From positions 5,580,001 to 5,644,000 of the forward strand of contig NC_092680.1 in NCBI RefSeq assembly GCF_964355755.1: DNA of 64,000 nucleotides. Reading direction: 5' to 3'. The notes beneath the pieces were generated by a model, which saw only the letters and a program-made list of their open reading frames with translations, ran no database searches and was not told the DNA's origin. Positions 2,076-64,000 of the stretch are shown here, one piece after another. Source of the stretch: Antedon mediterranea (taxonomy: Eukaryota; Animalia; Echinodermata). The translations under genes and the position numbers were made by a program. Within the stretch, counting starts at the first letter, position 1. Every line of letters begins with the position of its first letter.

Positions 2076-2734
2076 ATGATATCTATAGCATTATGTATTC
2101 AAGCATTGCCTAGACATTTATGATACAGATGTTGATGATACAAACGCCCAACTATCGTTGACCATGAAGAACAGAGATGAACGGTTTGAGTCATTGTGCT
2201 ATAAATAGTATAACATTCTATATCTCTAGAATCTATATTATTTGACACGAGTGATATTAGGAAGACGATTTACACTACAAACGATAATATTTCAATATAA
2301 TTGTTGCAATTTGTAATGTTTAATTATACTAAACGACTGAGTAAATCATTAATTAAGAAAATGCATGATTCTAAAAATATTATAACAATCCTCTTAAGAA
2401 TGTTTAAGCACCATTCTTTATGATAAGTACCGCACACATGAAAGAAGAAGTAACACATTGTGATATATTGTTTGTTATTGAATTTTTATAGATATGTACG
2501 GAAATTGTTGAGATACCTCGGAAACCATGTCTATTTTTCCTATCTATTAAACAACTGCTTTCGGAAGCTATTCACATAAAACCATTCTCGGAAAACATAC
2601 TTTGAAAGCGTAATATGTCACAAGACAATCTATATTATTTATAAATTGGAAGTACAACGGGTATTACGTTTAGAGTAGAAAATCTGTTGCTCAATAAACA
2701 ACATATTACATGTTTTATCTTTTTACTATATCAT

Positions 2735-31220: not shown

Positions 31221-34200
31221 ATGAAACGAGAAGAGGTCGAAGCGTTTGTAGAACAAATCTTAGAATCAATTGGTGATTTTAAGAAGTACTTGCCGAAGCT
31301 GATAAAAGCAGTGAGTGAATTTGAAGAGGAAGAGGAAGACGAAAATGAGCGGAACATGCAAGTATTAACGGATGTTATTGAGCAAGTGCTTTCTGCTGCT
31401 GAAAAAAGGTGATACGACATGTTATTATATTACTACAGCATCATTTGATCGTTTTATAAGAGATAAGAGATCGTAGTTCATACATAGATGATTTTATAAT
31501 AACATAAAAATAAAATGTCTATATTTGTCTTTGAAATTGCTGTATGGCGTAACCAAAATCTTATCATAAAATTTGTTTGGATACAGCAAGGGTAAACAGT
31601 CAAAGGTATTCGCCGAACTTGCAGTTGCCATGGCAGAGAAGAAGATGTCTGAGTATTATCATATTCTTGAACGCTTATTTAGGGACCGGAACATCGTAAA
31701 TTGGAAAGTAAAAATTATTGTTTTAATTAAAAATGTTTACTAATGTATGCATGATTCCATTTCATTCTTTATCAAATTTAGACCAATTTATTAGTATAAC
31801 CTAATAATAATATAATAATATTTATTGGTTACTCTCCTTTAAAACGGAGGAACACTCTTGTAACAAGAGGTTCGACCCATTTTTGTACTAAACAGCCACA
31901 AGTCGCGTGCTCTCAGAAAAACATTTCAAAAAGTAATGTATATCAAAACAGTTTAAAAAGTACAGAAAAACGATAAAACGCATAGTGATACCGGACCGAC
32001 AGACAGACCGACAGACCGACAGATCGACCGACCGACATAGTGAACTATTGAGTCGCGTTCACGTGACTAAAAATCATGTTTCTGAGTTATCTATTTTATT
32101 TATTTAAGAATCAATCAACAGAAGCCATACAAATAATCGAGACGTTCATGGAACCGCCAGCAATTAAAATGACAAAACGTGATGAAAGTTTTTATGGCAC
32201 CGAGGAACCAGAAAGATATGAAATGTCGAGCCGAATCGAAGACTGCACAAACGTATTGGTAGAAGCATTCATGTAAGTATGGAAAGTTCTTACTTTGGAA
32301 ATGCAACTGTTCCGAGTTACCTCTTTGCCCGTCTTTGCTTTCCTACATATTCAGTATTTTATTTCTCCTTCAGAACATAGCAATCCATTGCATGACATAT
32401 CTATTTCAGCCATTATTTCATCCTCTTTCAATTCTCTACCAGTTGTTTTCATATTTCCTCAGACCATCTCTTCATCTCATTTTGGTTTGCCTCTTTTCCT
32501 TTTCCCTACCCTTTTCCATTAAATTATCATGGAGTCTTGCAACGTGGCCTGCCTATTTTCACGTACAGGTATGTTTGGAGCAGATTTTTATCTTTCCATT
32601 ATTACTTGAATGGTACTTTGTTCATTATTACTCAGCCAAGCTCTCTTCGTTCCAAAACTCAATAAGTCTCCACGTCAATCAAATCTAATAATCGTAATTA
32701 TTTATTTTTAACAGACGAGATAAGTTAACGAAAAAAGTTCAAATCCCACTTCTACGACTATTGATAAATTCTCTGAAGAAATCTGAGATTGTCCATCTTA
32801 TGATTGCCAAGGGATTGTTAGATGGTTGGGATTTTAATGTTGAAGTAAGTTGTTCGTTTAATTAATTTTAGTAATGAAGATTTAAAGACGCAACACATGA
32901 AAAAGGATAAAATCAAATATTTGATTTTTAAGAAATGTTTTTAAGAAATGGCCTAATTTATTTTCGTTAAAAAAAACATGAACAAAAAAAGACAAAATAA
33001 ACGGTTACATTTTACTGTGGTTGACTCAGGTAAATATTTGTTTAAAAATCTTATTTTCGGTCAAAATAAACTGTGGTGACATTAAAATGGCCTATTAAAA
33101 AATGCCTACTTGTGCACGTGAAGTTGTCAATCCGAAAAAATGGCGGTATCAAATAATCATCGTGTGCAAGGTTCAAAATATTTGGGAGTTTTCAGCATTT
33201 TTTGTAGGGTTGGGTTTTCATAAAATGTTTAATCATATAGGACGGTGACACTAAAACTCTGATACCCGAGTTACTAAAGACGGTTGATGAGTGGACAAGA
33301 AAGTTTGACGAGAAGTTGTCAAGCGACGAACATCCAATTGAAGAAAACTTTGCAACAAATTCGTTGACAACTGCATTCAACTCCAACTGGTAAGATACCG
33401 ACATCTGTTTTAAAAACATTTTGACCTTTTTTAAAATGTTTAAAACTCCAACAATATTTAACAAATTAAGTATTTTACCTATAAATTTTTCCTAGAATAA
33501 AATGTATACGTGTATCTATACCGTTCCACGGCTGTCATTGCAGGTAATACAACATAACAAAAGATAGCCTACTGTTCGCGTGCTTTTAATAGGATGGATG
33601 AAATTAGCTGGTCACGGACGAAGTGAATAACTGAAATAAATTGGCGTAAGCCTATAATCATAATTATGCTAATTCCATTTTTTAGCCCTCCCAAGTTATA
33701 CATTAACCATGTTATATCGATATGGAATAACACATTGACGAAAGAGTTAGACGGTCAGCCAATGAATGGATGGGGGTTAATTGCCAGTAGCATACTAGGT
33801 AATTTCATCGTTGCAAAGGTAAATATTTACTTTTACATTTACTTGCTCCCGTTTTATTATTCAAGCATCATTTGATCTAGCGCATTTTTCTGAGCGTTTT
33901 TATTTTATATTTATAGGCTACTAAGATTGATATGACTGATTTAGTTCCTGGTGTAATGAGGCTAATACGGACAGACATCGAGGTATTGAGAACACTTTCA
34001 TCTGGCGTTATAGCATCCATGTATCAAAAGATTGACGCACTCGTGCCTTGCGCAGAAGAAGTTGTTGAGGTTTTTCTGGACTGCGAAGACATGTTTTTTA
34101 TGGGAAGTATGTGCTCAGATTTTATAAATTTGTATATAATATAGATGTGCAGGCCTATATAATTTTGATGACGACAGCTAAAACAATAATAATATGTTTT

Positions 34201-37200
34201 CCTTTCGTGTAAATTAATTATATAATAATTACTATTTCTATACACATTAGTTGTATAATACAAAGAATTTAAAATAATTTACGTAATTATTTAGTCTCCA
34301 ACTTAGTTGAAAATTATATCTAATTTGTAGAAAAATAAGAAAGATGATGCGGAAACGTCGTAATTGTTATATTTATGAACCTTAATCGCATAATTGTGGA
34401 AAAAATTGTTTTATTTAGTGTCATTAAAGTCACTGTATGCTAAATGTCCTGAGAAAATTATGAGTAAAGTGGATTTAATCTTGAGAAAGTTACCAGACAT
34501 GGAAGATGCAAAGAAAACATACGTTTACCTATTATTGGATGATATTTCAAAAACTTCCCCCCAGGTAAGAAATAACCTCATACGACAAACAAAAAATTAA
34601 TAATAAAAACAAGTTTAACAATTCATAATAAAAATAAATTGTTATAATTGTTATTTATTAAAATAATATAATATATATTAATTTTTTTTTCTTTCAATAA
34701 AGAAAATAGATCGAATAATTATTAGCCTACGAATGAATTTTTTTCTAACTTCCATATTCTAGTAAGAAAGTCTAGTAGAAAAACAACTATCCAAATTTAT
34801 TTTTTTATACAGACACTTGCACCACACATTGAAACCTTAATGGAGGACATTGATGAGCCGGGTATTCAACACCACTTACTTATGGTTCTTGGCGAAATTT
34901 CTGCAAAATACCCAGAGAAATTTGTAAATCACGTTGAAAGTCTTACCAGGGTATTACAATCACAGCCAGTGGTATTGTATCACGTAGATAAAATTATTGC
35001 AAGTGTTGGAACCATTAATAAGGTAGGAATAATTGTCAGAAGTTAAACTCTAAATTCTTATTGCTATTCACTCATTCAACAGAAGACAATATCTGCTTAA
35101 TTACATCGTAATACAGATTTTAGACAAATATAATAAATTAAATAAATTGATTTATATAGACCTACTATTATAACAAATTTTTCTAGGAATGGGCAATCAA
35201 AATCCTAAATATTTTAGCTGATCAACTTCAGACAGTACAAGCATTATATCAGTCAATTGTTTTATTGGAGATGAAAAGGATAGGGCAAAAGTTTCCTGAA
35301 TGTTTAACAACCCACAGAGCTAAGATAGAGGCGATGAAGAACAGCCCGCAGATGGGGATAGGAGACCTGGTGATTTCACTAATAGATTTTATGGAAGGAA
35401 GAAGGTAAGTTATTGGAGAAAGACGTAAATTAAAAGACTGTGGGCGGCTAGCTGGCATAAAATATTACTAATTTATAGAGAAAATAGTACAGACTATCTA
35501 TATTGTATTCTGTAGTAACTCTTCTGAAAATATCACTAAACGTTGAAGATACAAGCACAAATACAATAATCTTATCTTTCTTGGTAAATTAGCTGTACAC
35601 AAAATACTGTATTTTCTATAGTCTAGGGGTTTTACACGAGGAAATTATAGACCAGCGAGAGGACATCGAAGTCCTAGACACACGGGTGACAGCCACGGAA
35701 AGTAATGTTGCAGAAGTTACAGAGAATGTTGAGGAACAAGGAATGGACATAACGGCGGTGAAAACAGACGTCGCAGAACAAGGAAAAGCGTTGGAAGAGT
35801 TAGAAGATGTTGTTGATGAAACCGTTGTAAAGGTTGATGAGATAGACCATAAGGTAAAGTAGTTTTGTAATTACTCGGTAGTAACGTATACTTTTTATTT
35901 TGGTTCATACTGCTACTCTGTATTGTTTTTAGACGATTACGAATGCCCCTAAATGGTCTCGTGATGTTTCAAAACTGCTAAATCCAGAAGCTGATTATGA
36001 TTGGAGATTTTTGGCGATACGTCTCGGCTATTCGGTCGAAGACATTCGGAACTGGGTGTTGTCACCCGACCCGACTATGGCAATTCTAGCCGAATGGTAC
36101 ACGACTCATAAAAGTAGCGATGCAACATATGCAATACTGACGGCGTTAGAAGATATGGGACAAACAGAGGCTGTAAAGATAGTTGAAGAATCTTTAGAAC
36201 AAGCAGGTAGGCCTAATCAAGAACACACACATAACAAATGTGATGTGACCGATACTATTTTAACGTTATCTAATTTGTTACTTACCATTAGTACACTTTA
36301 TAATGAAAATATTCAACAATAATATCCCTAATTTAGATTTTTATTGAAATCGATAGATGCAATGGTTCCGAAATTAGGACCAGAAATATCAGAGAAACCA
36401 CCAAAAGTATTCATTAGTTACCAATGGGATCATCAACCTGAAGTGAAGGCTGTAAGAGATCATCTCGAGATGGCAGGGTTTGCTTGCTGGATGGACATTG
36501 GTCAGATGGGAGGTGGAGATAACTTATATGCAAAGATCAATGAAGGAATGAGAGCTGCTAAAGTTGTTCTGTGTATGACAACTGAGAAGTATTCGAAATC
36601 AGAAAACTGCAACAAAGAGGTAAAAAGAAATTTACTGGGCTATACATCTACGACGCTTTTCAACAAATCTATATTATATAAATTTACGTAAGGGCAAAAT
36701 TCGGTAAATCGCGCCTTACTTCTAGAAAAGTTGGTTCGTACTTTCGGTACTGATTTTAACCGCCTGATGTAACCCTGTTTACTAATTAAATTGAGTTAGA
36801 TAATTAGTTATTGACGATTAAAACGAATTTAGGTTCAACGATTTGCCCCAAATAGGGGTGTTTTCCGATCGTGGTATACACTGTCTAATGGATGTCCATC
36901 TTGAAAAATACCCGCCAAAAAAATGCGAGGAGGCTTCGCATTTTTCTATCTCCTCCTACGATAATTGTTTTTAATAGCTGAAAACCGGTTGAACAGCTAG
37001 AGTACACCATCATAATGTTGAAGACAGGCCGATTTTCTTTAAAAAATACTATTTTGATAGATTTAATATACGATTATACAAATGTATTGATTTGCGATGA
37101 ATGGAACATCCCAATCTCTCAGTCTGCCAGAGTTTGGTTTAACACAAGTACTGTAGGTAAATTTATGAGCCCTTGGTTTAACACATACGGTAGGTAAATA

Positions 37201-40079
37201 TATGGGCCCTTTGAGAATAAACTTGCAATAGGTTCGGAAAATGTTAAAAACCAATTTATATTATTTGAATCGGTAAACAGTTTCCATTTATTATACATTG
37301 ATAATGAAACATGAAATATTCCTATTTATGTCCCTCGAGGTTCATTACAATTTATATTTAGTAGTCCCACGGACTTCATCTTAGCCACTCCCCCGAGTGC
37401 TAAGGCCAAATTTATGATACCCTACTTTCTATGTAAGTTTAGTTACAGTTAGTTCTTGATAATACAACGAATTTAGGTTACACCCTTCGGCCGCGAAAAC
37501 GTTTCTGTACAAATATGATACCGATTGGCTTTATTTCATTCAACAGCGACCATAATCTCGCCAATTACAGGATAGATAAACTATTTTATTATTGATGTGC
37601 TTATAAATTAAGACTCATGTAAACAGCTTGATTACATCATTTTACAGACAAACGAAACTTTTTTAAACCTACTGTTTCAATAACTGAGTATAATACTGTA
37701 TACGTTTTCATAAGTAAGTGCATATACATTTTCGTGTTTTCATTGACGAGATTGTAATAGTAACTTCAGTAACTATTACAGTACTTATTTATTATACGAC
37801 ACAAGACAATTGTATCTGACAGGTACGTACATTATTCTAAAAAATAAGTCTAGATAGATCCCTTAGGCGTCATAAATCACAGGCCAACAAATCAGTACTC
37901 ATGACAGAAATTCGACCCAGTTTGGTTCACACAAATGTTTACAGGAATTTCAACCACCACAACCGATGATTTGCCCTAAATATTTAGGTAGACTACAGTT
38001 TAATTTTTCACTGAATAGGAGCTTGAATTTCCGATTTCCATTTCGCAGAATGTCTAGGTCTATTTATTTAGTTTGGTTCTTATAATATATAAATACAATC
38101 AACTTTATTACTGCGGTTCCATCACCACCACCACGTGCCGCCCAATTCCCCGGTACATACATTTCCATTTCTCCCTAATTTCTTTAGTCCACATAAATTA
38201 ATTGTCCTTTATGGAATCCAGTATTGGTTTTGTTGTCTCTATTCTATTCTACTGTATTCGAGAACCATCTGTGAGCACCCCTAGATGGTACGCGAGCGAA
38301 GCGAGCGTGCCATCTAGTTATTTAAATTACTTTAAATACTAAATACTTTATTTTGTTTATCCTTATTACAGGTGAACTTGGCGAATCTGCTCAACAAGCC
38401 AATCATACCGATCCTTATTGAGCGTACAGCCTGGCCTCCAGAAGGACCAATGAGCATGCTTTTTGCACAGCTTCTTTACATTCAATTTTTCACGGATAAG
38501 GATTACGTCAGAGGAGATAAATTCTGGGTTGATGCCAAGTTCGCTGAGTTATTGGCGCAAGTTAGTTATTATGCTTCCCCTGATCCAGATAAAATAACCG
38601 ACGGTAGGTAATTTTACTCGAAACTTTGTTTTAGAAACACTGAAAACATTGTCGTCACTCATTATCGTTATGATACTGCAGATACTTTTTAATGAATGTT
38701 CGTTTTCATCAAGAATCGAGTGACAATCGATTAAATTATTTTTCCAGAATACAAAAGTTGGGTACCAACAGTTGAAACACCTGACAAAGAAATAAAGAAA
38801 GCCAAGAAAGATGAACAAAGTGGTGAAACAAGCGCTTTAGCTTCTCAACCGGTACGTAGGTCCCACATAAATTACACAATAAACCTAACTTCACTGAAGC
38901 AATTGTTTTAAGGGTAGTTTAGTCCCCTTAACAGAAAAATCATTTATAGGGTATTGTATTTTTTTTATCAGGAATACCATATTTTTCTCCTCACCCCGGA
39001 CAAACCCGCTATGGACTGGTTCTCTTAAACATATAAATAAATAGGAATAAATGGAGTGGTGTGTTTAGCAGCTATATTTTTAAATACTGAAAGGTTCATA
39101 AACAAACTCTTTTCCAAATATATTAGTTCTCTTCTTTACTTAGAAAGCGGAAATCGAACCAGAGGTCTTTATATCATACCAATGGGATCATCAACCGCAG
39201 GTTAAGGTCTTGTACAAACGACTGACCAGTCTTGGTTATTCGTGTTGGTTGGATATCAAACAAATGGGCGGTGGAGATCCATTATATAGTAAAATTGACA
39301 AAGGTCTTCGCAAAGCTAAGGTAATCCAATTTTTATTTACGTTAAGTTTTTGATATGCAGATAGGTTACCTCACAAAATGAACTTTGAAGAGTCAACTCA
39401 GTTTTAATTTTAATTACTAGAATAAACGTTTTTAAGTAACTAAATCAGTAAATCTATGTGTTAAAAAGACAAAACTGGGATTGGAAGTGGCTGGTTGTTC
39501 ATTTTGTATAGGCCTACGTACTATTTTAACAATAATAGATTTAGAGATAAAGATAAATAATGCACATCTCCAAAACAAAGACGTTAAAGACAAATTTCTC
39601 TATTTAAAACATTCTGATACGCATTAATGTATTGAAACTTATAGGTTGTAATTTCCTGCGTTACACCGAAGTATTCATTGTCAGCCAACTGCCGTCGTGA
39701 AGTCAGTCTATCAGATGCTCTCCGTCGACCAATCATTCCAATCCTTCTCCAGCAGATGGCGTGGCCACCAGAAGGTCCAATGAGCATGACATTTACGCAA
39801 CTTCTCTACATAGACTTCACCAAGGAGTCAAATCAGGAAAGTTTTGCTGACGAGAAATTTGACGAACTTATTGCAAAAATTAGCGAGCATTCGCAGCCTG
39901 TAAAAGGAGGTGACACTCCTGCTAAACCATCTGCACCGGAATCAGTTTCTGGTGAGCCGAAACCCGAAGAACCAAAGTCCGAAGATCTAAAACCCGATCA
40001 GGTACAGACTCCTACAGAAACTCCGTCTGAACAAAAAAAGCAGCAACCTAAACCATCTAAAAGATGCTGTGTTTCATAA
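31221..40079 (+). CDS. Gene A: helical repeat (ARM/HEAT-like)-coiled coil-Death-TIR-TIR-CCaX protein, 17 coding exons, ~1121 aa
   Basis: Exons 31221-31408, 31587-31707, 32109-32272, 32715-32844, 33241-33389, 33686-33818, 33917-34106, 34419-34564, 34813-35022, 35187-35404, 35622-35853, 35933-36206, 36357-36619, 38372-38603, 38748-38851, 39144-39320, 39645-40079. All introns are GT-AG with consistent phases; total 3366 nt. Death: [29 protein letters not shown]1: [27 protein letters not shown]2: [24 protein letters not shown]. Ends KRCCVS. Confidence 0.9.
36668..38317 (+). mobile_element. Non-autonomous Helitron in intron 13 of gene A
   Basis: 5' TCTATATTATATAAA; 3' hairpin ctagatggtacgcgagcgaagcgagcgtgccatCTAG; A/T insertion site. 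The equivalent intron in gene B (48344-48460) lacks it. Confidence 0.88.
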
Positions 40080-42491: not shown

Positions 42492-45400
42492 ATGAATCGA
42501 GCAGAGGTCGAAGCGTTTGTAGAACAAATCTCAGAATCAATTGATGATTTTAAGTACATACCGAAGCTGATAAAAGCAGTGAATGAATTCGACGAAGCCG
42601 AAGATGTAAATGAGCGGAACATGCGGGTACTAACTGACGTCATTGAAGACGACATATTTTCTGCTGCTGAAAAAAGGTTACAACATTTCTTGTTTACTAG
42701 TTGTTTTAGTAATTAACAATAGGCCTACTTCTTACTTGATGTTAGATGAGAGTAGATAAGAGAGGTGGTATTTAGTAGTTAGGCTACAGTACGACAGACA
42801 AAATTATCATCTTGAACAGACTCACATTTAAAGTTACTGCTAGAGACTAGCATGATAACCGTAAGACATAATCATAATAATCATCGGTATGGCAATTTGC
42901 TGCGTGAGTTGAAAGAACCAGATATGCCCGACCACTGTAAAAAATACGGAGGTATGTTTCGAAATGGAGGAAAAACGCTTACTTCCTTCGTGGTTTCAGA
43001 CTGATCTACCTTACATGAGAAAAATACCCAAAGTGGTGATCATTTCTAGTCATACTATTGCTAGTTACTCTTCCATATAATGAAATAAGACATTGATTAA
43101 TTAAAACCACCAAAACAATATTTGTCTTTGAATTACTTTTTAAACATGTATTTATTTGTTTGAATACAGCAAGGGTAAACAGTCTAAAGCATTAGCTGGA
43201 CTTGCAGTTGCCATGGCAGAGAAGAAGATGTCCGAGTATTACCGCAGTCTCGAACGTCTATTCAGAGAGCGGAACATCGTCAATTGGAAAGTAAATTATA
43301 CCTTGAATGTTCTCTCCAGTTTATATGTTTATATGTTAATAACTTTATCTTAGGAATGCATATAACCTCAAAGGGAAATCTTTCTCATAATTGTCATAAT
43401 ATCATTAATATAATATTAAGTGTTTCCAATTTAGGTCAATTACTACTACTACTCGGCTATCCAAGGAGTTGGATAGCCGAGTCAATTGCATCTAGTGGTT
43501 AGGACACTTGACTGTCATACAGATAGACCCGGGTTCAATTCCCGACAGCTCCCAGTCCACTCAGCTGTAAAATAGTACCTGGTTGAAAATACTAGGGAGA
43601 AAAAAGGCGGCGTAGAAAGCAACTGGCCACCCTACCACATAATGCCGAGGCTTAGTACAATGAGCTCCTAACAGCTCATTCCACTACGTTCAGAGAATAC
43701 GGGACTCACCTTTACCTTTACCTTCACTACTATATACTACAACTTTTCTATGATCGTTACGAGTTAATTTTATCTTATGTATTAAGGATCGATCAACAGA
43801 AGCCATAAAAGTAATAGAAACATTTATGGAACCACCAGCAATAAAAATGACTGATAAGGATGAAAGTTGGTATGGCACTGAAGAACCAGAAAGATATGAA
43901 ATGTCTGAACGAATTAAAGATTGTACAGAAAAAATGGTAAAAGCATTTGTGTAAGTAAAACTATACTTCATGCTAGAAATAAGCTTCTTGGAAAAATTAT
44001 GTTGTACCTCAGTATAGTGATTATAAAATGTATCTCACAAAATGATCATTTTCCGTCATAAGCACAAATGTTGATCTTCGGTGTCGAAACAAATGGATAA
44101 TAACAAAACAAACTATTAATCGTAATTATTTTCTTTTTTAAATGTATGTAACAGACGAGATAAGTTAACTAAGAAAGTGTGTATCAACCTTCTACAACTA
44201 TTGATAAACTGTCTGAAGAAATCCGAGATTGTTCATCTTATGATTGCCAAGGGATTGTTAGGTGACTGGGATTTTAAGGTTGAAGTAAGTTAATAATTTC
44301 TTTTGTTTCTTTATATAATAGTTTACACATTTATTATTAAGGGACGTGGCCACAATGACTACCTAACCAGTGATGACAGTAATATAATAACCGGTAGTAA
44401 ATGATCAAGACAGATCGTGTAAAGGGTCTTTCATTGGCGTTCGATTCGAAGGACCGGAACCATGCCGGAACAGCTGGTGTGAAAGACCCTTAATGTATGT
44501 TAGGGCAGCCAGACGCTACCGATTTAGTAACTGAAAATTACCTCTGGGCTAGTTTAACGGACCAATATTTGTTAGTATTTTTGAATGGGTGTGGTGCAGA
44601 TTTATCTAATCAGTAATAAATTCCTACAGGACAGTAAAGCTAAAACTCTGATACCTGAATTAGTAAAGACTGTTGATGAGTGGACGAGAAAGTTTGACGA
44701 GAAGTTGTCAAGCGACGAACATCCATTTGAAGAAGACTTTCCAACAAATGCGTTGACAGTTGCATTTGGCTCTAACTGGTAAGATACCAAAATCAGTTTT
44801 AAACACATTTTGACCTTTTTTAATATGTTCAACTTAGTGATCGTCATCATTATATTTTCAGTAAGTAATTTGAAAAATAATAATTTACACTAAAAAAAAA
44901 ATAACGCTATACTGAATTTATAATATAAATTAAAATACAATGACTATTTATAATAAAACGTTGAATTAAACCCTTATAAAGATCTACGGTAGTAACAATA
45001 CATTCATTTCCACTTTTAAAATAATGATGTAATGCTATTTAATCGTACAATGTCTATTAATTTAATTCACGGGAAAGCTGCGCAACGTCTCGTTTCAAAG
45101 GACTGAGTATTGAGAGTAAACAATCTTGGACGGATACAAACAGCTGAAGAATCAAATCTAATAACTAGTGTGTAGACCTTAATAATGTTATTTTTAATTG
45201 ATAGTCCTCCTAAATTATACCAAAATCATGTTGTATCAATATGGAAGAACCTATTGACAAAAGAATTAGACGGTCAGCCATTGACGGGATGGGGGTCAAT
45301 TGCATCTACAATATTAAGTGAATTCATCATTCCTAAGGTAAATATTTACTTTTTACACTATTTGAACATTATTCAAACAACGTTTTAAGCCTAATCCACA

Positions 45401-48400
45401 CTAGCATACTATACCAAACTCTTTGCGAACTCTGTGTTTGCGACTGTGTTTGTATTACCTGTCGAAACGAGTTACTAGGAGTCTATCATTTTGTCTATCT
45501 GAAAAATCACATTACTACAAAGCACCCAAATACTTGTTACTTGATTCGTTGAGTTTACAAGCCTCTGCAAACTGTCAAGAAAATACACGGCCCAACGTCT
45601 GCAAACTACGATAGTCGACTAGTCAACAGAAAACTGTTATTGCCAAACTCGAGTTGTTTCAGCCAACTTTCCTTGTACAGTAGACTCTAGGTTTTAAACA
45701 AAACCATGCAAAGTCTTCCTCAAATTAAAAATTGAATTATTTTCAAATAATTGCCTTCGTAGTTTTGTAAGCGTTTTTTTATATTTATTGTTGTATTCAT
45801 AGGCCACTAAGATTGATATGAATGAGTTGGTTCCCGGGGTTATGACGCTAATACGGTCAGACGTCGAGTTGTTAAAGGATCTTTCATCTAGCCTTATAGC
45901 ATCCATGTATGAAAAGGTGGACTCACTCGTGCCGTGTGCAGAAGAGCTGATTGATGTTTATCTTGACTGCGAAGAAATGTTCTATATAGGAAGTATGTGT
46001 TTAGATTTAATCAGGTCAAAATGTGTACTTTTTCCGGATCTATTACGGTAGTAGTTTAGAGTAAATATAAATATGTGGCACATGCAAGAGAAATCAGATA
46101 TAAGTCGGAATTTTCTAAAGGTATTTCAAAGAAACTTCCAACTTCGGGTACATTTTTAACAATTACGCAATATTATACTTTTTACTATGGTCATTTTGTT
46201 TCATCATAGTGTCATTAAAACCGTTGTATGCTAAATGTCCTGAGAAGATTATGAATAAAATGGATACAATTTTGGAAAAATTACCTGACTTGGATAAAAA
46301 CAGAAAGCAATTCCTTTATTTACTATTTGACGGAATTGTGAAATCGTCTACTAAGGTAAGTAAGAATTAAACAAAAACTTTATATTTTTTTTGTGATTAC
46401 AGATCCTTTAATAACTGGTCCAAATCATAACAAGACAATACAAAGTTTAATAAATCAGTAAATGTATTCAAACAATCTGAATACACACAGTTTATAAAAT
46501 AACGAGGAAGCTATGAATAATGTATCCAATAACTATATAAAAGGTATTAATTTTTGTTTAAAGGTAATTTCGTTCTATTTCAGACATTTGCACCACACGT
46601 CGATACCTTAATGGAAGATATCAATGAGTCGAATGTTCAATACCAAGTTCTCTTGGTTCTTGGTGAAGTTGCAGCGAAATACCCGGAAAAATTTGTAAAT
46701 CACATCGAAAGTCTTACTGGGGTATTAGATTCAGAGCCAAACGCAGTGTACCACGTAGATAAGATCATTGCCTGTGTTGGAACCATGAATAAGGTATGTC
46801 GAAAACAAGCAAATTCAAAATATAAAAGTGCTTTTTATTTTCCTTTTGCCCATTTTCAACCAAATGTAACATGCCTTCTTTTTCAACTACTTTCCAGGAA
46901 TGGGCAATCAAAATTCTAAAGATTTTAGTTGGTCAGCTTCAGACAGTACAAACGTCCTACCAGTCAGTTGTTTTAATGGAGATGAAAAGAATAGGCCATA
47001 AATTTCCTGAATGTTTAACACCATACAGAAAGGAGATAGAGGCCATGAAGGAAAGTTCACAGATGGGGGTAGGAGACTTGGTGATTTCACTAATCGATTT
47101 TATGGAAGGAAGAACGTAAGTCATTTGAGAAGGGTGTACATTCTTTTTCTAAACAGAGATAGATCAAGTTCAGAGAAAGTTTGGGAAGAATCACCTTTAG
47201 AAAATAAAACATTGAACACCCACATACCCATTTGATCATCGTTATCAGTGTTTATTTTTCTTATTTTCCCCCATAAAAGTTTGGAAGCTTTACATGAGGA
47301 TATTGTAGAACAGCGAGAGGACATCGAAGTCTTAGACACACGAGTAACAAACACGGAAAATAACGTTGCAGAGGTTACAGAGAAAGTTGACGAACAAGGA
47401 AAGGAAATAACGGCGGTAAAAACAGACGTCGCAGAACAAGGACAGAAATTGGAAGAGTTGGAAGAAGTTGTTGATGAAACCGTTGTAAAAGTTGACGAGA
47501 TAGACCATAAGGTAAGATGTTATACTTTGTAATGTTTGATGAGAATACCATTATTGATGATTATCTTTGTAGTCTACTGCAGATCGAAAGTGGACAACAT
47601 AACATGGTGGTGGTTTTTCTAAAATGACTATTATTATGGCAAATTTATTTTAAATAAAAATCTGTTAAATTTTCAGACGATTACTAATGCACCAAAATGG
47701 TCACGTGATGTTTCAAAACTACTAAATCCAGAAGCTGACTATGATTGGAGATTTTTGGCGATACGTCTCGGCTACTCGGGAGAGGACATTCGAAACTGGG
47801 CGTTGTCACCTGACCCTACTATGGCAATTCTAGCCGAATGGTACACGACCCATAAAAGTAGTGATGCAACATATGCAATATTGACAGCGTTAGAAGATAT
47901 GGGACAAACAGAAGCTGTAAAGATAGTTGAAGAATCTTTAGAACAAGCAGGTAATCAAGCACACATAAATAAACATACAATTTATTTTAAGTTTTTTCTC
48001 ATTGACGATTAATGTTTAAGCTTTAATGTATAATGAATAACAATCGTATTCTTAATTAAGCTTTTCATTGACATCGATAGATGCAATGGTTCCGAAATTA
48101 GGATCCGAAATATCAGAGAAACCACCAAAGGTTTTCATCAGTTACCAATGGGATCATCAACCTGAGGTTAAGGCTATAAGAGAGCATCTTGAGATGGCAG
48201 GGTTTGCTTGCTGGATGGACATTGGTCAGATGGGAGGTGGAGATAATTTATATGCAAAGATCAACGAAGGAATGAGAGCTGCTAAAGTTGTTCTGTGTAT
48301 GACAACTGAGAAGTATTCGAAATCTGAAAACTGCAACAAAGAGGTAAAAACAAAATTTACTGAATAACTGGGTTATCTCTACGACGCTACGACTATAGAA

Positions 48401-50559
48401 ATCTTACTCACATGGTAACTTTAAATACTAAATACTTGTTTATGTTTATCCTCATTACAGGTGAACTTGGCGAATCTGCTCAACAAGCCAATCATACCGA
48501 TCCTTATTGAGCGTACAGCCTGGCCTCCAGAAGGTCCAATGAGCATGCTTTTTGCACAGCTTCTTTACATCCAATTTTTCACGGATAAAGATTACGTCAG
48601 AGGAGATAAATTTTGGGTTGATGCCAAATTTGCAGAGTTATTGGCGCAAGTCAGTTATTATGCTGCTCCAGATCCAGAACAAATTACTGACGGTATGGGA
48701 AGATTATGTTTAAATATTTTATTTATTTCTATTTTATTTTATGTTTCAGAAGTATTCAAAACGTATTGTAATCATCTAATAATATTATTATTAAAAAAAT
48801 GATTTACGAAATACGGTTTTCTTTTTTTCAGAATACAAAAGTTGGGTACCAACTGTTGAGGCACCTGAGCAAGAAATAAAACAAGCTAAGAAAGATGATA
48901 AAGGCGGTGAAACCAAAGTGGTAGAATCCGAGCAGGTAATATTCAGGAGTATATAAAGTGTATTTGACGTAAGGTCACTAACATATACAGAGTAATATTA
49001 AAATAATAAGCCCATGTAATCGTAATTATTTCTTTCTTATTGATGATTGTATAGATGCATTGAGTATTGTGTTGCTCTACAAATGGGTTTATATCCACTA
49101 AGCCAGTAACTTAATCAACGATTCTTATCTTAATTCATTTATTACCAGTTTTGTTCTTTACTTAGCAAGCGGAAATCGAACCAGAAGTCTTCATATCATA
49201 CCAATGGGATCATCAACCACAGATAAAGGTCTTGTACCAACGACTGACCAGTCTTGGTTACTCGTGTTGGTTGGATATTAAACAAATGGGCGGTGGAGAT
49301 CCATTATATAGTAAAATTGACAAAGGTCTTCGCAAAGCTAAGGTAAGTCAGTTAAAATATTATTTACATACACCTATTGTAAGTAATCAATAGGCCTACA
49401 TTATAATAATGTACCTAACCTACGTAATTATTCGAATACTAGCTAGTGTTCTAAAGGACACAATTAAGTGCCACTGTTCATGTATAATTTTAATACTATT
49501 TTAAAACTCTGAAATTATGTCGTCCTTCTATAGGTCAGTTATAGAGAGTGTCATAACGTATTCTTTAACGGTATGGTTCGGTAGCACTACCGAAAATGAA
49601 AAGCGTGACCTAAATAGAATAGTCAAGACCGCGTCGCGTGTAATTGGATCTGCACAACTGCCTTTGGAGAGCATATTTTCGGATCGTCTTCTGAAAAAGG
49701 CAGTGGCTATCAAAGATGATCAATTTCATCCGGCCTATAGTATGTTCCAGTTGATGCGCAGCGGTTGGCAATTTTGTTCTATTAAGGCCAATAAGGCACG
49801 ATTTACAAATAGTTTCTTTGCAGGAGCTATTAGAGCCTTAAACATAATGTAGACACTTTTTTGTAATGTTTTTGTTTTTGAGTTCGTGTTGTGTCCGTTG
49901 AATATTGTGCTACGCCAACAGAGCAAACAGAATTTCTATGTTTTTTCTTAAAACAAATGATAATAAATGATACTTGACTTGACTTGACTTGAAAGTCGTA
50001 CTACCAAAGGTGCTCAATGCACAGTTGAGGTTAATTATTAGATTTAATATTTTGTCTATAAATTGTATTATAGGTTGTTATTTCCTGCGTTACGCCGAAG
50101 TATTCATTGTCAGCCAACTGCCGACGTGAAGTCAGTCTATCAGATGCTCTCCGTCGACCAATCATTCCAATCCTTCTCCAGCAGATGACATGGCCACCAG
50201 AAGGTCCAATGAGCATGACATTTACACAGCTTCTCTACATTGACTTTACCAAGGAGTCAAGTCAGGAAAGTTTTGCTGACGAAAAATTTGACGAACTTGT
50301 TGCAAAAATTAATGAACATGCGCAGCCTGGAGAGGAAGGTAAACAATCTACACCTGAACAAGTTTCTGATCAGCCGAAACCTGAAGAATCAAAATCGGAA
50401 GATCCTAAACCCGAAGAACCAAAATCCAAAGCTCCCAAACCCGAAGAACCAAAGTCTGAAGATCCAAAACAAGAGGCTCCTCAGCAGCAAAAACCTCCAA
50501 CAGCGCCTGAACCGAATAAGCAAAATCAGAAAAAATCGAAGACTTGTTGCGTTTTATAA
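42492..50559 (+). CDS. Gene B: paralog of gene A, 17 coding exons, ~1137 aa, ends KKSKTCCVL
   Basis: Exons 42492-42676, 43170-43290, 43787-43950, 44155-44284, 44630-44778, 45205-45337, 45803-45992, 46210-46355, 46584-46793, 46898-47115, 47280-47511, 47677-47950, 48081-48343, 48461-48692, 48832-48935, 49166-49342, 50074-50559. Internal exon lengths are identical to gene A. Confidence 0.9.
43475..43725 (+). mobile_element. tRNA-derived SINE in intron 2 of gene B
   Basis: tRNA-like head (tctagtggttaggacac...gggttcaattccc), body ccagtccactcagctgtaaaatagtacc, tail (ACCTTT)n. Absent from the same intron of genes A and C. Confidence 0.78.
44423..44490. mobile_element. Tiny MITE with TAA target duplication (PIF/Harbinger-like)
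   Basis: TIRs agggtctttca / tgaaagaccct, flanked by taa on both sides. Confidence 0.6.
49510..49993 (+). mobile_element. 3' fragment of a Rex1/Babar-like non-LTR retrotransposon in intron 16 of gene B
   Basis: [22 protein letters not shown]...[13 protein letters not shown]...HPAYSMF...SG...[13 protein letters not shown] is typical of the post-RT C-terminus of this clade. It is followed by a (GACTT)n tail. Confidence 0.75.
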
Positions 50560-51178
50560 CTGTTTACAAATAACATCCAAGTCATGCGTTTGCTGTGCAG
50601 TAATGTTTTCTAAACAAATAATAAATAGTTCTATTGTCTCCTTCCTTCTTCAGTCGTTTGTCCACTAACGTCAAATTCCCTACAGTGACAATCCCATCGT
50701 AGAGCCCTGTCAACTGTCTATTGTTTGCAGTTGTTCAAAGTATACCTATAGTAACGCTATAGTTAATTCGTTATGATCAGTGCAAGTCTAATTATTTTGT
50801 TTAACCATTAAAATGTAAGTCAGCGTATATTGTATTTAGATCTTTGAACACTCTTTTGAAAATATTACATTTCTATTAATTCTTTAATTAAATTTAAGTA
50901 AAATAATTAATTAACGCTTCACTTAAACGAATTGAAACTTACATAAAATCGAATATAATTTATTAAAATAGTTTTTTTAAATTATTATTTACAAAAAGGT
51001 ATTAATAAATATTTATATATATATAGTAATTTAATTTTTGTGATGTGACTATACATGCTGCATGTTGTATTTTCTTTAATTATTTAGTTTATAAATATGG
51101 ATTATGGTTATTATGAATTCATAGAATAAAAACTTTAAAAAATTGAACGTGTGTATACTTTGAGTTGATTTATTTAAA

Positions 51179-52476: not shown

Positions 52477-53071
52477 TAATAATAATTATTATTATATTCA
52501 AATACATTTATTGTGTACTAGTGTGTTATAGCAATCATGTGGTTTATTTGAATTTAAACTAACTAAATTTAGTTGAATTTAATGAACGTAATAGCGTAAA
52601 GAAAATTACACGAAAGACTATTAATTATTTCTTTTTTTCTAACTTTTGAAAACGTTTCGTTTCGTTCGTTTCGTTCAATGTTTGTTTTAAAAAAAACACA
52701 AAAAAACAATGCAGTAACAGTAAGCTTAGTTTGCTATATGTATGTATCCCAATAAATAAATTAATATGAGATGTTCTTGAGAGCGATTTCTATCTATTAT
52801 AATATCTACCTAACATTGATTATTACATCACCATGGCAATACTAGGCAATATTATTGTTTGTAGTATAATTAATTGGTTTATTGTATTGTTGATGATGCG
52901 GTTCACTGATTTCTAGCCAGCAGTACGCCTACTGTGGCAGTATGGTGGAAATAAGAAGAAATAAGCAGCAAGTACTTAGGTTGATACTGAGCAATAGCTA
53001 AGGTAATTATGATAATTAGTGCTTAAGAACGTGAGAAGACTACTATAGTAATACTTAACTACTGTATAACC

Positions 53072-57566: not shown

Positions 57567-60500
57567 ATGAAAAGGGCAGAGGTCGAAGCGATTGTAGAAG
57601 AAATCTCGGAATCAATTGATGATTTTAAGTACATGCCGAAGCTGATTAAAGCAGTGACTGAATTTGAAGAAGAGGAAGATGTCAAAAAGCTGAACATGCG
57701 AGTATTGAGAAATGTCATTGACAAAGTACTTTCTGCCGCTAAGAAAAGGTTTGTCATGTTATTTAAATTGTTTAATAACTAACAGGAATAGTATCATGTA
57801 GGTCTAGATACTAAGTTAAAACTTGGTATCTGGCCTACATGGAATGGTATAAGCGAATAGTTAAGGGCGTATTTACACACAACACAAATAGGTTAAGCTT
57901 CCAAGTTTATTCAGAGTATACATATTTAACAATACATAATATTTATTTCTACTGATACTGTACAAGCAATGCTAAAAACTACTAAAGCTTAATAATAAAC
58001 TACATTTTGGCCTCTTGGGGGCTACCACTCATATGAAATCGCTGTATGAAAGGTCCAGTGTGTTGTCACAGGAGCCAGTAAATCAAATGGTTGTTATTAA
58101 GTAGGCCTATATCGGTAAGTTCGTGACATCCGTTAGGTAAGTTGTGGAATTTGGGGGCAAAATAATTCCCCAGAATTATACCAGCCAAATTAGCGAATAA
58201 CATGAGTAACATATGAGTAGCGCCTGTGTTGAGTTAGGTGTTGGATGATGCCGGGGGATGGCTGGGTGGGAAAGATTGAAAAGTTTGTACAACTATCGAA
58301 CGGCTAGTTTAACAATGAAGTGTGCTAGTATGCATCTTAGTAAACAACTGAAAACACACTGAATTCTCATTGGTTGCCAATTAGAAATTAGCCTATCCTA
58401 CATTTTTGTGGTTCCACTATTAGATATACCCGTAATGATCTATAGAAATACATTGTCAATTACTGTGGTTGGAACTTTGATTAAGGGTCTCCCTTGACTA
58501 ACATTCCGTTTTAATTACCTGTAAAAACAATATACCATTCATCCTAACACTTCTATTACTCTGAAATCTACCCACATTTATATACCACATCCTTAGTTAA
58601 AAGAAAGTACTTGTGCTGTGTATAAACTATAATTTATTACTTTAAATTTCCTTTTATTTACTCAATTAGAAAATCCACTAATCCTTCTAATTTGTTGCAA
58701 TAATAAGTTATTGGTGGACAACCCTTAAAACATTATAATATTTAATTCATTTATTTAATAATAAAGAGGCTTAACATTTAAGACCAAATAGTTCAGTACA
58801 TAACAGAAACTGCTGGAACAAAAATACTTCTACCAGATTCTCAGTGTATCTCCAAATATTTAAAGTATCATAGGGATATTTAATAATACATGTAGCATCT
58901 CATTTGAGTCACATGTGGTGTCTGCATCATGCAGTGTCTGCATCATACAATGTTAGGTTAAAGTATATGATACTACTGTAGGAGAAACATGTGAAACAAA
59001 TGTGATGTTGTATTTACCATTATGATGATACTAGCGAAATCTATATATAGTACCGAGAACCGGGGGATACTTCTTTGTGTTGTAGACGGATACATATTAC
59101 TGTGCGTCCAGTCTTACTAGATCCTCTACTATCTGTTAATAAAATTATAAATAATGACCAATTTAACCAAAAAACAATGCATATTTTCTTTTAAATTGTT
59201 GAAATTCGTAAAACAAATATGTATTTAAATTTGTTTGGATACAGCAAGGGTAAAGAGTCTAAAGCATTCGCCGGACTTGCAGTTGCCATGGCAGAGAAGA
59301 AGATGTCCATGTACTGTCGCAGGCTCAAGAGCTTATTTAACGACCGGAACATCGTCAATTGGAAAGTAAAACTATTTCTTTTTAAGGTTTTAAAGGTTCT
59401 CATCTAGTCTAGTTTAAATTAGGATAAATTACTTATCTTTTTTCATACGCTGTTTAGGGTCACCCTCTATAACTAAGGTGTAATAAAAAAAATAAAAAAT
59501 GGGGAGATGAACAAGTTGCTGCATTCTCACTCTTCTCCTATTATTAGTCGTTATGAGGGCTTTTGTAAAGCGATTCATAGAGGGCACTTACTTTTTATCA
59601 TGTGACACAATCGTCCAATTAAATAAAAGGAATCTATTTTAGGTGTTATATAATAGGTTTTATTTTGTTTACCAATTAAGTTTTTTTTTATAAACAAATA
59701 CTCTCAGTACAGTTTTTAATTTAAAAGTCTGGATTACTATCTATTGTTCTTCAGTTTTCAGCCAATATATATTTTATCTTGTTTGTTAAGGACCACTCCA
59801 CAGAAGCTATACAAATAATAGAGACATTTATTGAACCACCAAAAATCAAAATGACTGACGATGATGAACGTTGGTATGGCACTCGCAGACTAGAAGAATG
59901 TGAAATGTCTAAACGAATAAAAGATTGTGCAGAAGCAATGGTAAAAGCATTTTTGTAAGTACGCTTAAAGATACATTTCGCCCCTTAAAAGACAACCCGT
60001 AAGTAAGGTAGGATGAAGTATACTCAATTTGTATTAATTTTATGGGGTGGGTACGAAAAGGTTTTTGTTTTCATATTTCTTTTTCACCACCAATCCATTG
60101 GAGGACTGCAGATAATATCTGGAGAACCCACGCCCACGACACAAACGTATCTCGACGTATTCGAGAGTACAAAATAAACGTTTCAATTTAAAACAGAGAA
60201 CCAATTTAAACATACAGTTTTATCATTACTGTAATAGTAAATGTTCGTCTTTATCTCTTTTCCTTTATTAGACGAGATAAATTAGCTAAGAAAATTGAAA
60301 TCAAGCTTCTGCAACTGTTGATAAATTGTTTTGAGAAATCGGAGGTTTTTCATCTTATGATTGCCAGGGGAATGTTATATCAATGGAATTTTAAGCCTGA
60401 AGTAAGCTATTTATAGTTTAATTTTGTGTCTAAGAAGGTTTAAATAGTGCAACAAAGCCAGATTGAGTAACATTCGTTTTTGACCGAATTGACTTGAGCC

Positions 60501-63500
60501 CGAGATGACTTGAGGCCGAGTTGACTTAAGGCACAGTTGACCTGAGGCCCAGATGAATTGGGGCCGAGTTGACATTGGCCGAGACGGTTTAGAGTCGACT
60601 TGGATCGAAATCCATGTGTGCTAGAGAAACTAATAAGCAAAGCTTATTACTGTTAGTTGTTACGCAAACAAAATAAATTTGTAATAATTTTATAGAAATG
60701 TATATAGTACATGAGTTTTTTTATACCTGTACATTTATCATACTCTAAAAGTAATTTACAGGATTATTTTCATAAACGGAGGATGAGGTTCTAAATATAA
60801 TTTCGAATAATGAAATTGACTACTCTAACATCTAATGGAAAGGTTAATGTTGGTGTTTTCAAACGGGTGTGGTGCAGAATTATCTAATCAGTAATTAATG
60901 TTTGTATACCAAAAGGACAGGACTCTGATACCCAAGTTGATAAAGACTGTTGATGAGTGGACTAGAAAATTTGATGAGATAATGTCTAAAGACAACCCTC
61001 CCTACCAAGTAACCATTGTAGAGAAATCGTTGGAAATTGCATTTAATTCCAACTGGTAAGAAAGCAATGTTATTTAATTTATATCATGAAAATATAGAAA
61101 TATAATTTTAAACAATTTTGATAAAGAAGATGTCAGTTATGTTATTATACTGTAATTTTTATTCTCAATTATATAATTATATACCCTAGGTTTATTTTTA
61201 TTTTTTTAGTAATGTGTTTTGTTGTGGGTCCCTGCGAGACAAGTTTTTAACTTCTAGAAGGGATCCATGATAATAATGACTACAACTTACTGTTTTATCT
61301 ATGTTCACTTTAATATTTTTTTCTATTTTGTATATGTTCATTCATTATTATCTGAATAAATGTTATCTGAACTTGAATCTTACATCAATGAAGTAAATTT
61401 GAAATGGTCAAAAAATTGACAATTTTGAATTAAAATACTCATTTTCGTTACTCCATAAGCTACACATTCATGGCAAAGTAAAAGCTTTCCAATTTAAAAA
61501 CCTACACAAACTTATTTTTACAAATGAAAGATTGTTCAGAATCGGTTTAACTGAATCCGACTTGTGTTCCTTTTGTAAAAAAAAGAAAGACAATTTACTT
61601 CATATATTTGTGTATTATAACATGTGCCGCCCTTTATGGATATTTCTTAAAAACCTTATATTTTAACGAACAGGAAATTTAAGTAATGTAAACAATGAAA
61701 TAATTATTAGGTTTGGAGACAAAGGCTAATTAACAAAATATTATATTTATGACTGCAGAATTAAAAAATAATGTACCTTATTTAAAAGCCTTAAAATTCA
61801 TATTTAACAGATTATAACAAATTTTAGATCTTGCTTAAGTGGGTAGTGAATTATGGGTGCTCTATTCTGTATTCTTTTATTTAAATGTGTTTTTTTTTTG
61901 TATGTATAAAAGATATGAAAATAAAAAAATAATAATAATAATAATAATAATAAAACCAAGCTTTAAACGGTACGCCATTGTTTTTAGTATTCCACCTTAG
62001 ATCTATTAATCTTTCTCATTTCAGTACGTAATTATTACATTTCTAAAGTTACTGTGTTTACGTTCAGTTATTAACAGAAAACGGTTTTAAAATGGAAAGT
62101 TTTAAAAAAAAAGTAAATATCTTGGACTGGTGTTATTGGTGGTTAAAACTTGAGGTATTTAGGCCATGCTAATGTTACTTTTTTTTCGTCTTATTTTTAG
62201 CCCTCCAAAATTATACCTAAACTATGTTGTAACAATGTGGAAGAATGCATTGACAAAAGAGTTAGAAGGTCAACCATTGACAGGATGGGGGATAATAGCA
62301 TGTGAAATACTAAATGGACTCATAAATCAGAAGGTAAATATTGCTCCCTTTCCTCAAATTTAAGAAATTTTGGATAGGGTTTAATAAACTTTACAACAAT
62401 ATTATACTTGTGCTGTGTGTTACAACTGACTTTAATCTTGAATTTTAGGCATTTTGTATTAAAGATACGTAATATCAAATAACATCCAATTCATCACTAA
62501 TTCTTCCTATCATTATCGTTTTCTTCGTCTTATTTTTTGGCTAGAATGGAATAATGACTTGAGAAATGCATTATAAATTATTGTTTATAATAATAACTTT
62601 AATAATAATAATGTACACATAAAAATATACATACATACATTTTCAGCAGAAAAAAAAAATACAATTATTAAATAATTATGTTTTATGTGCACATTTTAAA
62701 TGTTTGTAACATAATATTCTTTTAAAATATTTTTTTCACTTTTTGTGAGTGTTTTTATTTCATTACAGGCTTCTATGTTTGATATGACTGAGTTAGCCCC
62801 GGGTGTAATGACTCTAATACGGGCGGACATCGATAGGTTAACTTCTTCTGCGTGTAGAGTGATATCATCCATGTACGAACAGATAGACGCACTTGCGCCG
62901 TGGACAGAAGAACTCGTTGACCTTTTTTTAGACAACGATGAGATGTGTACTAGTATAGGAAGTATGTGATCAGATTAACGCTGCATTCACACTCTTTCAC
63001 AAGCGGAAGGCGGCGCCATTTTGTTCAATATTGGAAAGTGATTTTAAGAAATAAACGGTGCCGTCTTCCGTCTCGTAAAATGGAACAAGTTTGAATATAG
63101 CGTTAATAATCTCGATGTACGCCTATTAGTATTTAATCATCAATGAATGATAATGAAAATAGTCCATGTTATTAAACTAAATTTGAATTTAATAGTCTTC
63201 ATTATGACGTCACATTACCTAATTATCATATCAGCTCAAAATTATACAATAAGTTGGAACCATTGCATACAGTACACTGCTATATTATACACAAAGAATT
63301 ATAACGTAAAACAACATTGTGTATCTTTCAAAAGAACTTATTACTTTTGAAAGTATTTTAAAGACACAACTTATTTAGTCTACAACTTATCAATGGAAAT
63401 AGGATTTTTTCTTCTTCGTTGTCAATAAACCATTACTTTTATTATTGCCATCGGTCCCTTAATTTGTAGGAACATCAACATATTAATTAATTAAATTTCA

Positions 63501-63732
63501 GTATATCACCAGGCGGTTTAGAATTACTATTCTTTGCCTAATTTGTTTATATATATATATATTATTTTTTTGCACTTTATTTGTAGTGTCATTAAAACCA
63601 CTGTATATTAAATGTCCTGAGAAGATTATGAGTAAAATGGATTTAATCTTTGAAAAGTTACCGGACCTGGATGCGAACAGGAAACGATACCTTTATCTTT
63701 TCTTTGACAATATTTCGAAAACTTCCACTAAG
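57567..63732 (+). CDS. Gene C: third paralog of the Death-TIR-TIR family; first 8 coding exons only (continues beyond the window)
   Basis: Exons 57567-57748, 59245-59365, 59791-59954, 60272-60401, 60916-61055, 62201-62333, 62769-62961, 63587-63732. Phases match genes A and B, and I found no stops. The exon 5 acceptor is shifted and less certain. Confidence 0.82.
60480..60605. repeat. Degenerate ~16-bp tandem repeat (gagttgacttgaggcc), probably a transposon subterminal array
   Basis: About 6-7 imperfect copies, GC-richer than the flanks, in intron 4 of gene C. Confidence 0.55.
61380..61955 (+). mobile_element. Decayed 3' fragment of another L1/Tx1-like LINE in intron 5 of gene C
   Basis: Translates KAFQFKNLHKLIFTNERLFRIGLTESDLCSFCKKKKDNLLHIFV (zinc-knuckle region) and ends in aataaa + (AAT)n. 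Confidence 0.7.
62975..63106. mobile_element. Small palindromic MITE just after exon 7 of gene C
   Basis: ttaacgctgcattca / tgaatatagcgttaa termini with inner inverted gcggaaggcggcgcc / ggtgccgtcttccg. Confidence 0.55.
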
Positions 63733-64000
63733 GTAAGGCAAGAACAAACTGATTCATGGTCCAAACTTTGTCTTTACTTTTGAAACATCTCTTCAGTTCA
63801 AATCAAACATGTTTTCAAACAATATGACAATAAGGATTTATTTAATCATTATTACTATTATCAGTATTTATTCCAGCAATGGTGAGCTGAGATTTTATAG
63901 GTCTAAAGAACTGCAATAACATAAATTACGGTAAAAGCAAAACAACCAAATTCTTGCACCTGACAATGTAATCTTCAATTTGAAAATATATCAGTTATAT

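Follow-up and report, generated by a model that had tools for sequence, protein, structure and literature searches.

In a 64,000-nt stretch of the genome of the echinoderm Antedon mediterranea (NCBI RefSeq assembly GCF_964355755.1, contig NC_092680.1, positions 5,580,001 to 5,644,000 of the forward strand; hereafter the window, with positions counted from its first letter), we have analyzed a gene, designated gene A, whose product carries two TIR domains in tandem, both of which retain a glutamate where enzymatic TIRs have their catalytic one. Gene A lies at 31221–40079 on the + strand and consists of 17 exons separated by 16 GT-AG introns, and the database protein P0001 (1121 aa) is its letter-for-letter product, in the order of ARM/HEAT repeats, coiled coil, Death domain, TIR1, TIR2 and a polybasic CaaX end. 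Judging from the sequence, the reading we favor over a plain adaptor, at about even odds, is that this protein is an immune switch in the form of a membrane-anchored NAD+ glycohydrolase resembling SARM1, restrained by its ARM region and activated by oligomerisation, and the broader view that it processes NAD+ in one way or another appears fairly probable.

Retention of the Glu in both TIRs was the central claim of the first-pass annotation of this DNA, and it was upheld by alignment and by near-invariance. HMMER placed the alphaC Glu of the family on SARM1 E642 and the Trp of its W-P-P motif on W662, both in TIR2 of P0050 and in the TIR1-type domain of P0052; these alignments are weak to moderate (E 0.007 and 3e-06) and contain a four-residue gap before the Glu, and the residue numbers were counted from them. 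In gene A, the respective residues E806 and E996 fall in predicted alphaC helices (801–812 and 991–1002). The Trp after betaD (SARM1 W662) is present in both TIRs, and the spacing suggests that it is equivalent also to AbTir W227; for Trp827 and Trp1017 we presume the role of the equivalent SARM1 W662 position. The same annotation had regarded S-x-x-C-x-x-E as the motif carrying the SARM1 Glu, which was mistaken, because SARM1 reads C635-K-D-W638-V-H-K-E642 there.

Conservation was examined in a core set of 139 homologues, 134 of which have two TIRs (120 of 192 matches in the underlying search). Among these 134 proteins, the Glu column is kept in all TIR1 and in 133 TIR2 domains, and the columns of S739, Y740, W763, D765 and W827, which represent the Ser-Tyr of betaA, the Trp-x-Asp of betaB and W-P-P, are kept in 133–134 of 134 in both TIRs. 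The Trp of the AA loop (W742) is likewise near-invariant (133/134 for TIR1 and 132/134 for TIR2), and the BB loop of the family reads W-x-D-I-x-Q-M-G-G-G-D. The residue four positions before the Glu (Glu-4) is Asn802 or Asn992 in gene A, and Asn occupies this position in 134/134 TIR1 and 132/134 TIR2 domains; in an ungapped register, Cat1 and PdTIR have Trp there. The family thus lacks the aromatic residue at Glu-4 (WxxxE) that marks cyclase-type TIRs.

The two 11-residue motifs reported in the first-pass annotation are located where it had placed them, at 36590 (TIR1) and 39672 (TIR2) in gene A and at 48314 and 50101 in gene B, a tandem paralogue; of the stretches it had reported as common to both TIRs, one of 14 residues and WPPEGPMS were found at four + strand sites each, two of them in either gene. 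In gene A these motifs sit in short exons of AT-rich eukaryotic sequence rather than inside one open reading frame (ORF), and the Val following Glu806 is encoded only when exon 13 is spliced to 38372. A 1,136-nt contig of run X1, presumed to be RNA, spans five exons from 36355 to 39796, and the three introns examined end GT-AG. Because this contig joins these exons, both Glu codons are present on one spliced molecule; it differs from gene A by 12 letters and may represent an allele or a paralogue.

Natural variants give a further view of the pocket. In a variant set of 114 further proteins (from 120 of 402 matches), the Glu is present in 161 of the 184 domains covering its column; the Asn is found in 154 of the 160 domains with Glu and missing from 17 of the 22 without it, and W-P-P is kept in 22 of 23 Glu-less domains. 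When the 73 two-TIR proteins of this set were classified, 59 had both Glu residues, 12 had only that of TIR2, one had only that of TIR1 (poorly aligned) and one had neither. In divergent paralogues, loss of the Glu is thus accompanied by loss of the Asn, in most cases in TIR1, and the counterpart of SARM1 W662 persists, which is a new observation for this family. Such variants fit an active site divided between two TIRs like that of SARM1 and AbTir, although W-P-P in Glu-less domains may instead be kept for folding or assembly. A sea cucumber paralogue, P0048, has the opposite pattern with a degenerate TIR2. In P0252, a tick Death-TIR protein of 349 aa and a possible arthropod relative, the Glu is present, Ser replaces the Asn and the C terminus reads CVLL.

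Comparison of genes A and B gave ratios of nonsynonymous to synonymous substitution rates (dN/dS) of 0.027 for TIR1, 0.105 for TIR2, 0.030 for Death, 0.31 for ARM and 0.27 for the linker, indicating strong purifying selection on the TIR and Death exons. Pfam TIR_2 matches P0001 in two stretches (E 3.6e-49), and TIR1 and TIR2 are 54% identical, far above chance. In a quick tree comprising 66 domains, taken from 33 of the 134 proteins and constructed with no outgroup, all TIR1 domains are separated from all TIR2 domains (Shimodaira-Hasegawa-like approximate likelihood ratio test, SH-aLRT, 99), and the TIR duplication is therefore older than the protostome-deuterostome split. The internal duplication proposed in the first-pass annotation is thus supported, as an ancient event. 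A recent duplication, or ongoing homogenisation of TIR1 and TIR2, was considered and rejected on the basis of the separate clades and different intron positions. Named family members come from echinoderms, hemichordates, amphioxus, molluscs, annelids, a nemertean, a flatworm, a bryozoan and rotifers.

The C terminus of the family has the features of CaaX proteins, namely a Cys fourth from the end, aliphatic residues after it and a basic stretch before it. A terminal C-x-x-x is found in 118 of the 139 core homologues, Cys making up only 0.3% of the preceding 90 residues, and the ten residues before it contain 2.7 Lys/Arg on average; in the second, fragment-rich homologue set, 72 of 114 end in C-x-x-x. 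The last residue is Leu in 88 of the 118, among which only the gene A form ends in Ser. CaaX proteins ending in Leu are geranylgeranylated and those ending in Ser are farnesylated, and by these rules the Leu-ending homologues are predicted to be geranylgeranylated and the gene A form farnesylated. Gene A protein is likely to be prenylated and membrane-bound. The abalone paralogues P0118, P0120 and P0121 have Gly in place of the alphaC Cys in TIR1 and lack the CaaX end.

Sequence comparison places the TIRs of P0001 near SARM1 and bacterial TIRs. Among its 22 matches to solved sequences (E<=1), the TIR matches are PdTIR, Cat1, AbTir, SARM1 and other bacterial TIRs, and none is a TIR of TLR, MyD88 or MAL; the best PADLOC and NCBIfam matches are bacterial defence TIRs, under the curated cut-offs. 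Structure comparison is less selective: the model of homologue P0016 gave Z scores of 16.9 for Hydra TRR-2, 16.1 for IL-1RAcP, 15.8 for IL-18Rbeta, 15.5 for SARM1 and 15.4 for MyD88, and TIR2 matched TIR-APAZ with Z 17.9 (root-mean-square deviation, rmsd, 2.0; 133 aligned). SARM1 was the top Foldseek match for both models, and we rejected this as a sign of shared overall structure, because whole-protein TM-scores of 0.11–0.15 mean shared domains only.

The domains are distributed over the exons, all on the + strand, as follows. Exons 1–10 (31221..35404) encode the helical ARM/HEAT-like region (aa 1–549), which was recognized from the exon map, the predicted model, and structure and profile matches: it is all-helical with predicted local distance difference test (pLDDT) values mostly above 80, armadillo proteins match it by structure comparison (Z 21.4, rmsd 3.3, 249 aligned), adaptin HEAT repeats match it by profile, and its assignment is left between ARM and HEAT. 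Exon 11 (35622..35853) encodes the acidic coiled coil (aa 550–627), seen as a long helix at 551–600 in the model and as weak coiled-coil family matches in homologues, and exon 12 (35933..36206) encodes the Death domain (aa 628–718; Pfam Death, E 6.8e-09), to which the p75NTR death domain is the closest solved sequence (E 7e-06 with P0001). TIR1 (aa 733–872) is divided between exon 13 (36357..36619), which covers betaA to alphaC with Asn802 at 36605 and Glu806 as its last codon (36617–36619), and exon 14 (38372..38603), which covers the rest with Trp827-Pro-Pro at 38432, the counterpart of SARM1 W662. The 49-residue inter-TIR linker is assigned to exon 15 (38748..38851), with a conserved first half and a low-pLDDT second half. 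TIR2 (aa 922–1062) begins in exon 16 (39144..39320; betaA to alphaB) and is completed in exon 17 (39645..40079), where Asn992 (39687), Glu996 (39699) and Trp1017 (39762) are followed by a disordered Pro/Glu/Lys tail, a basic stretch and the CaaX end (Cys1118 at 40065; CCVS-stop). The predicted model of P0001 has soluble domains only, without a transmembrane segment.

For the membrane-anchored NAD+ glycohydrolase, we propose the following scheme. The CaaX lipid and the basic residues would hold the protein at a membrane, the ARM region would sense a ligand and keep the TIRs apart, and the coiled coil and Death domain would cluster the molecules. In the resulting head-to-tail stack of TIRs, the Glu pocket would come from one TIR and the adenine-binding Trp from the next, and two TIRs per chain might reduce the number of chains needed for assembly. 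In SARM1 the active site spans two TIRs and the ARM domains hold the enzyme off (PMC11282687), and in AbTir the site also spans two TIRs, with W227 of the adjacent TIR contacting the adenine (Manik et al., bioRxiv 10.1101/2022.05.07.491051). Because the alphaC Trp is replaced by Asn, the product would more probably be linear ADP-ribose (ADPR), resulting in local NAD+ loss, or a non-standard compound than 2'/3'-cyclic ADP-ribose (cADPR), and TIR2 would be the more indispensable catalytic copy. The first-pass annotation had suggested that a covalent TIR pair could pre-form part of the active interface, and the linker seems long enough for a head-to-tail pair. The tandem model has two confident TIRs with linker pLDDT below 50 and a predicted TM-score (pTM) of 0.53, which does not point to a fixed orientation, and TIR1 and TIR2 given as two chains to a complex predictor, run without alignments, scored 0.00, which is no evidence either way. 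A more ambitious form of this proposal, a bilaterian-wide prenylated SARM1 analogue with half or all of a composite site built into each chain (Trp of TIR1, Glu of TIR2), an Asn-for-Trp pocket, an undescribed NAD+-derived product and Death-mediated coupling to cell death or NF-kB signalling, we regard as unlikely; if true, it would give the clade 13 TIRs their first characterised enzyme.

Several observations weigh against an NAD+-cleaving enzyme or weaken the evidence for it. A retained Glu is by itself weak evidence of activity: Hurieva et al. (bioRxiv 10.64898/2026.04.20.719644) report that it is present in most animal TIRs that do not belong to the TLR/IL-1R clades, that of 61 such TIRs only 12 showed activity in E. 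coli, and that TLR2, IL-1R9 and IL-1R10 were inactive despite having it; a member of the gene A family may be among the 154 TIRs they tested. A survey also suggests a role of the Glu beyond catalysis (PMC7075850). SARM1 W638A is less active and the equivalent change abolished the activity of L6 and ROQ1 (Manik et al.), and the present family has no Trp at this position. By fold, the modelled TIRs appear equally near to scaffold and enzyme TIRs, and the presence of a Death domain speaks for signalling as an adaptor. The TIR1-TIR2 spacing (185–202 aa, n=124) was considered as a sign of a fixed interface and rejected as not specific, since the Death-TIR1 spacing is equally tight (quartiles 111–112, n=60). 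The CaaX end is missing in 21 of 139 homologues, some of which are fragments; the Glu-less paralogues are mutually related, so that they may represent few independent events; and dS between genes A and B is 0.2 in the TIR exons and 0.5 in ARM, and gene conversion may therefore inflate the likeness of the paralogues.

The alternative that survives best, which we consider somewhat unlikely, is a non-catalytic adaptor resembling MyD88, in which prenylation would bring the protein to a membrane, the TIRs would engage TLR or further TIR proteins, IRAK-type kinases would be recruited through the Death domain and the Glu would be structural. This is the published reading of the architecture, as the family has already been catalogued: PMC6836662 assigns proteins with an ARM-like region, a Death domain and two TIRs to ecTIR-DC family 6 (Gerdol et al. 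2017) and proposes a gill-expressed clam (Loripes) member as a TLR adaptor; PMC9334734 describes three Aplysia "MyD88-like" proteins with Armadillo fold, whose loci correspond to P0033, P0035 and P0257 in our homologue sets; and UniRef names P0026 "MyD88-like protein L1". In the literature searched, which left subscription journals mostly outside, we found no source for the latter name, nor any work on the function or enzymatic activity of the family or any mention of its CaaX end. Death plus TIR is indeed the layout of MyD88, and the nearest ESM Atlas clusters are MyD88 at 0.86–0.87, all below 0.9 and thus a lead only. The fold scores, which tie with MyD88 and IL-1R TIRs, and the WPP surface still kept by Glu-losing paralogues are also in favor of an adaptor. 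However, the BB loop W-x-D-I-x-Q-M-G-G-G-D is not the box 2 motif R-D-x-x-P-G of MyD88/TLR (PMC7075850), and a TIR atlas files family members in clade 13, which it calls uncharacterised, and MyD88 in clade 1 (PMC13142454). Furthermore, p75NTR (E 3.6e-08) matches the Death domain by profile more closely than MyD88 does (E 0.0087), and the pocket residues are near-invariant in both TIRs, with the Asn being lost along with the Glu.

A signal-making cyclase, in which the TIR pair would act at the membrane and generate cADPR or one of its isomers as a second messenger, seems quite unlikely. The first-pass annotation had suggested cADPR-type signals as one of two outcomes, NAD+ depletion being the other, and canonical cADPR was the product of most active animal TIRs of Hurieva et al., an echinoderm and a mollusc TIR among them; the invariant AA-loop Trp (W742) could also replace the missing aromatic residue. 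However, all 12 cyclase TIRs among 122 characterised domains have W, Y or F at Glu-4, and its mutation shifts the product to ADPR (Manik et al.). Since the family has Asn there, cyclic products are disfavoured, making them the less likely branch, with the caution that this rule was drawn from bacterial TIRs. The last possibility, that the motifs are an artefact or remnants of a decaying duplicate without selection, is hardly credible and largely refuted: gene A does have repeats and a retroelement around it, decay of tandem copies is possible and TIR2 of P0048 is degenerate, but the 17-exon frame is intact, a spliced contig exists, the TIR dN/dS is 0.03–0.1 and conservation extends across many invertebrate phyla.

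At least three tandem paralogues, genes A, B and C, are located on the + strand of the window. Gene B (42492..50559; P0003) has its Glu codons at 48341 and 50128 and ends CCVL-stop; in the region 42492–42886, an exon homologous to gene A exon 1 lies at 42492, yet P0003 begins at 42852. Gene C (57567..63735) matches the 5' part of P0004 and continues beyond the window end, and a fourth paralogue, P0002, has no exact match within the window. When the first TIR exon was used for a search, 53 proteins were found among 66 candidates, and the best four are Antedon mediterranea proteins on one contig. The 1.75-kb intron within TIR1 of gene A carries high-copy repeats (36665–38356), which recur partly downstream of gene B (51176–52516), and its counterpart in gene B is only 117 nt. 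Within the intron splitting TIR2 of gene B, a 115-codon open frame (49505–49852, +) resembles by eye a C-terminal fragment of a retroelement, and pieces of a non-LTR (long terminal repeat) retroelement (53129–56165, +; RVT_1 E 2.5e-34, zf-RVT) lie between genes B and C. Seven or more long ORFs, carrying two or three immunoglobulin (Ig) domains, are arranged in tandem at 66–24527 (+); six have a transmembrane-like segment and Tyr-rich tails, and one (2687–4198) has repeated IVYSGL motifs resembling immunoreceptor tyrosine-based inhibitory motifs. From its sequence, this cluster looks like an expanded immune receptor array adjoining the TIR genes.

The C-x-x-x end is, together with the aforementioned joint loss of Glu and Asn, what is new here for an old, tandem-expanded family that occurs widely among invertebrates, molluscs and echinoderms included, and has been classed as a MyD88-like adaptor. 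If NAD+ cleavage is true, these animals have a second membrane-anchored SARM1-like pathway made of different parts. In that case, the natural covalent TIR pair and the natural Glu-less TIR1 variants would give a direct handle on the division of composite TIR active sites, and the family tests whether the aromatic-at-Glu-4 rule of cyclisation holds in eukaryotic clades 10–13.

Among known systems, ecTIR-DC6 is that to which the gene A family belongs by architecture: gene A product has the same long armadillo-like N-terminus and a central Death domain followed by two TIRs without a transmembrane segment, and both are limited to invertebrates; bivalve and gastropod homologues of this layout were found. 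As published, ecTIR-DC6 is read as a TLR adaptor, and the available portions of the two papers (PMC6836662, PMC9334734) do not mention the catalytic Glu, the coiled coil or the CaaX end.

SARM1 and C. elegans TIR-1 share with gene A protein the ARM region and a TIR with the Glu (642) and Trp-Pro (662–663). SARM1, which has an N-terminal mitochondrial signal, is also membrane-targeted, as the CaaX end predicts for gene A protein. In contrast to SARM1, gene A protein has two TIRs, a C-terminal CaaX, Asn for W638 and a shorter alphaC region, and members of its family are filed in atlas clade 13, SARM1 in clade 8 (PMC13142454); an orthologue of SARM1 was rejected, because a coiled coil and a Death domain stand where two SAM domains are expected. 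MyD88 has the same Death domain directly before a TIR, and orthology with it was rejected because the BB loop D-I-x-Q-M-G-G-G-D is not box 2; the ARM region, the coil, the second TIR, CaaX and a Death domain nearer to p75NTR are further differences.

Sea urchin, Capitella and Lottia family members are filed in clade 13 of the same atlas, where choanoflagellate and diatom single TIRs share N-C-x-x-E and W-P-P with the family; other members there have SAM, Tudor or ARM partners, with no Death domain in the rows examined. Five proteins (P0345, P0367, P0298, P0309 and P0348) have five to seven TIRs in repeats of ~200 residues, mostly with S-x-Y-C-x-x-E, and P0345 is named from Candidatus Parabeggiatoa; these proteins represent a bacterial poly-TIR architecture. 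The closest TIRs to the family by sequence are those of bacterial NADases (AbTir, Cat1, TIR-APAZ and Thoeris ThsB); Cat1 and PdTIR have Trp at Glu-4, whereas gene A protein has Asn there and is encoded by a eukaryotic multi-exon gene.

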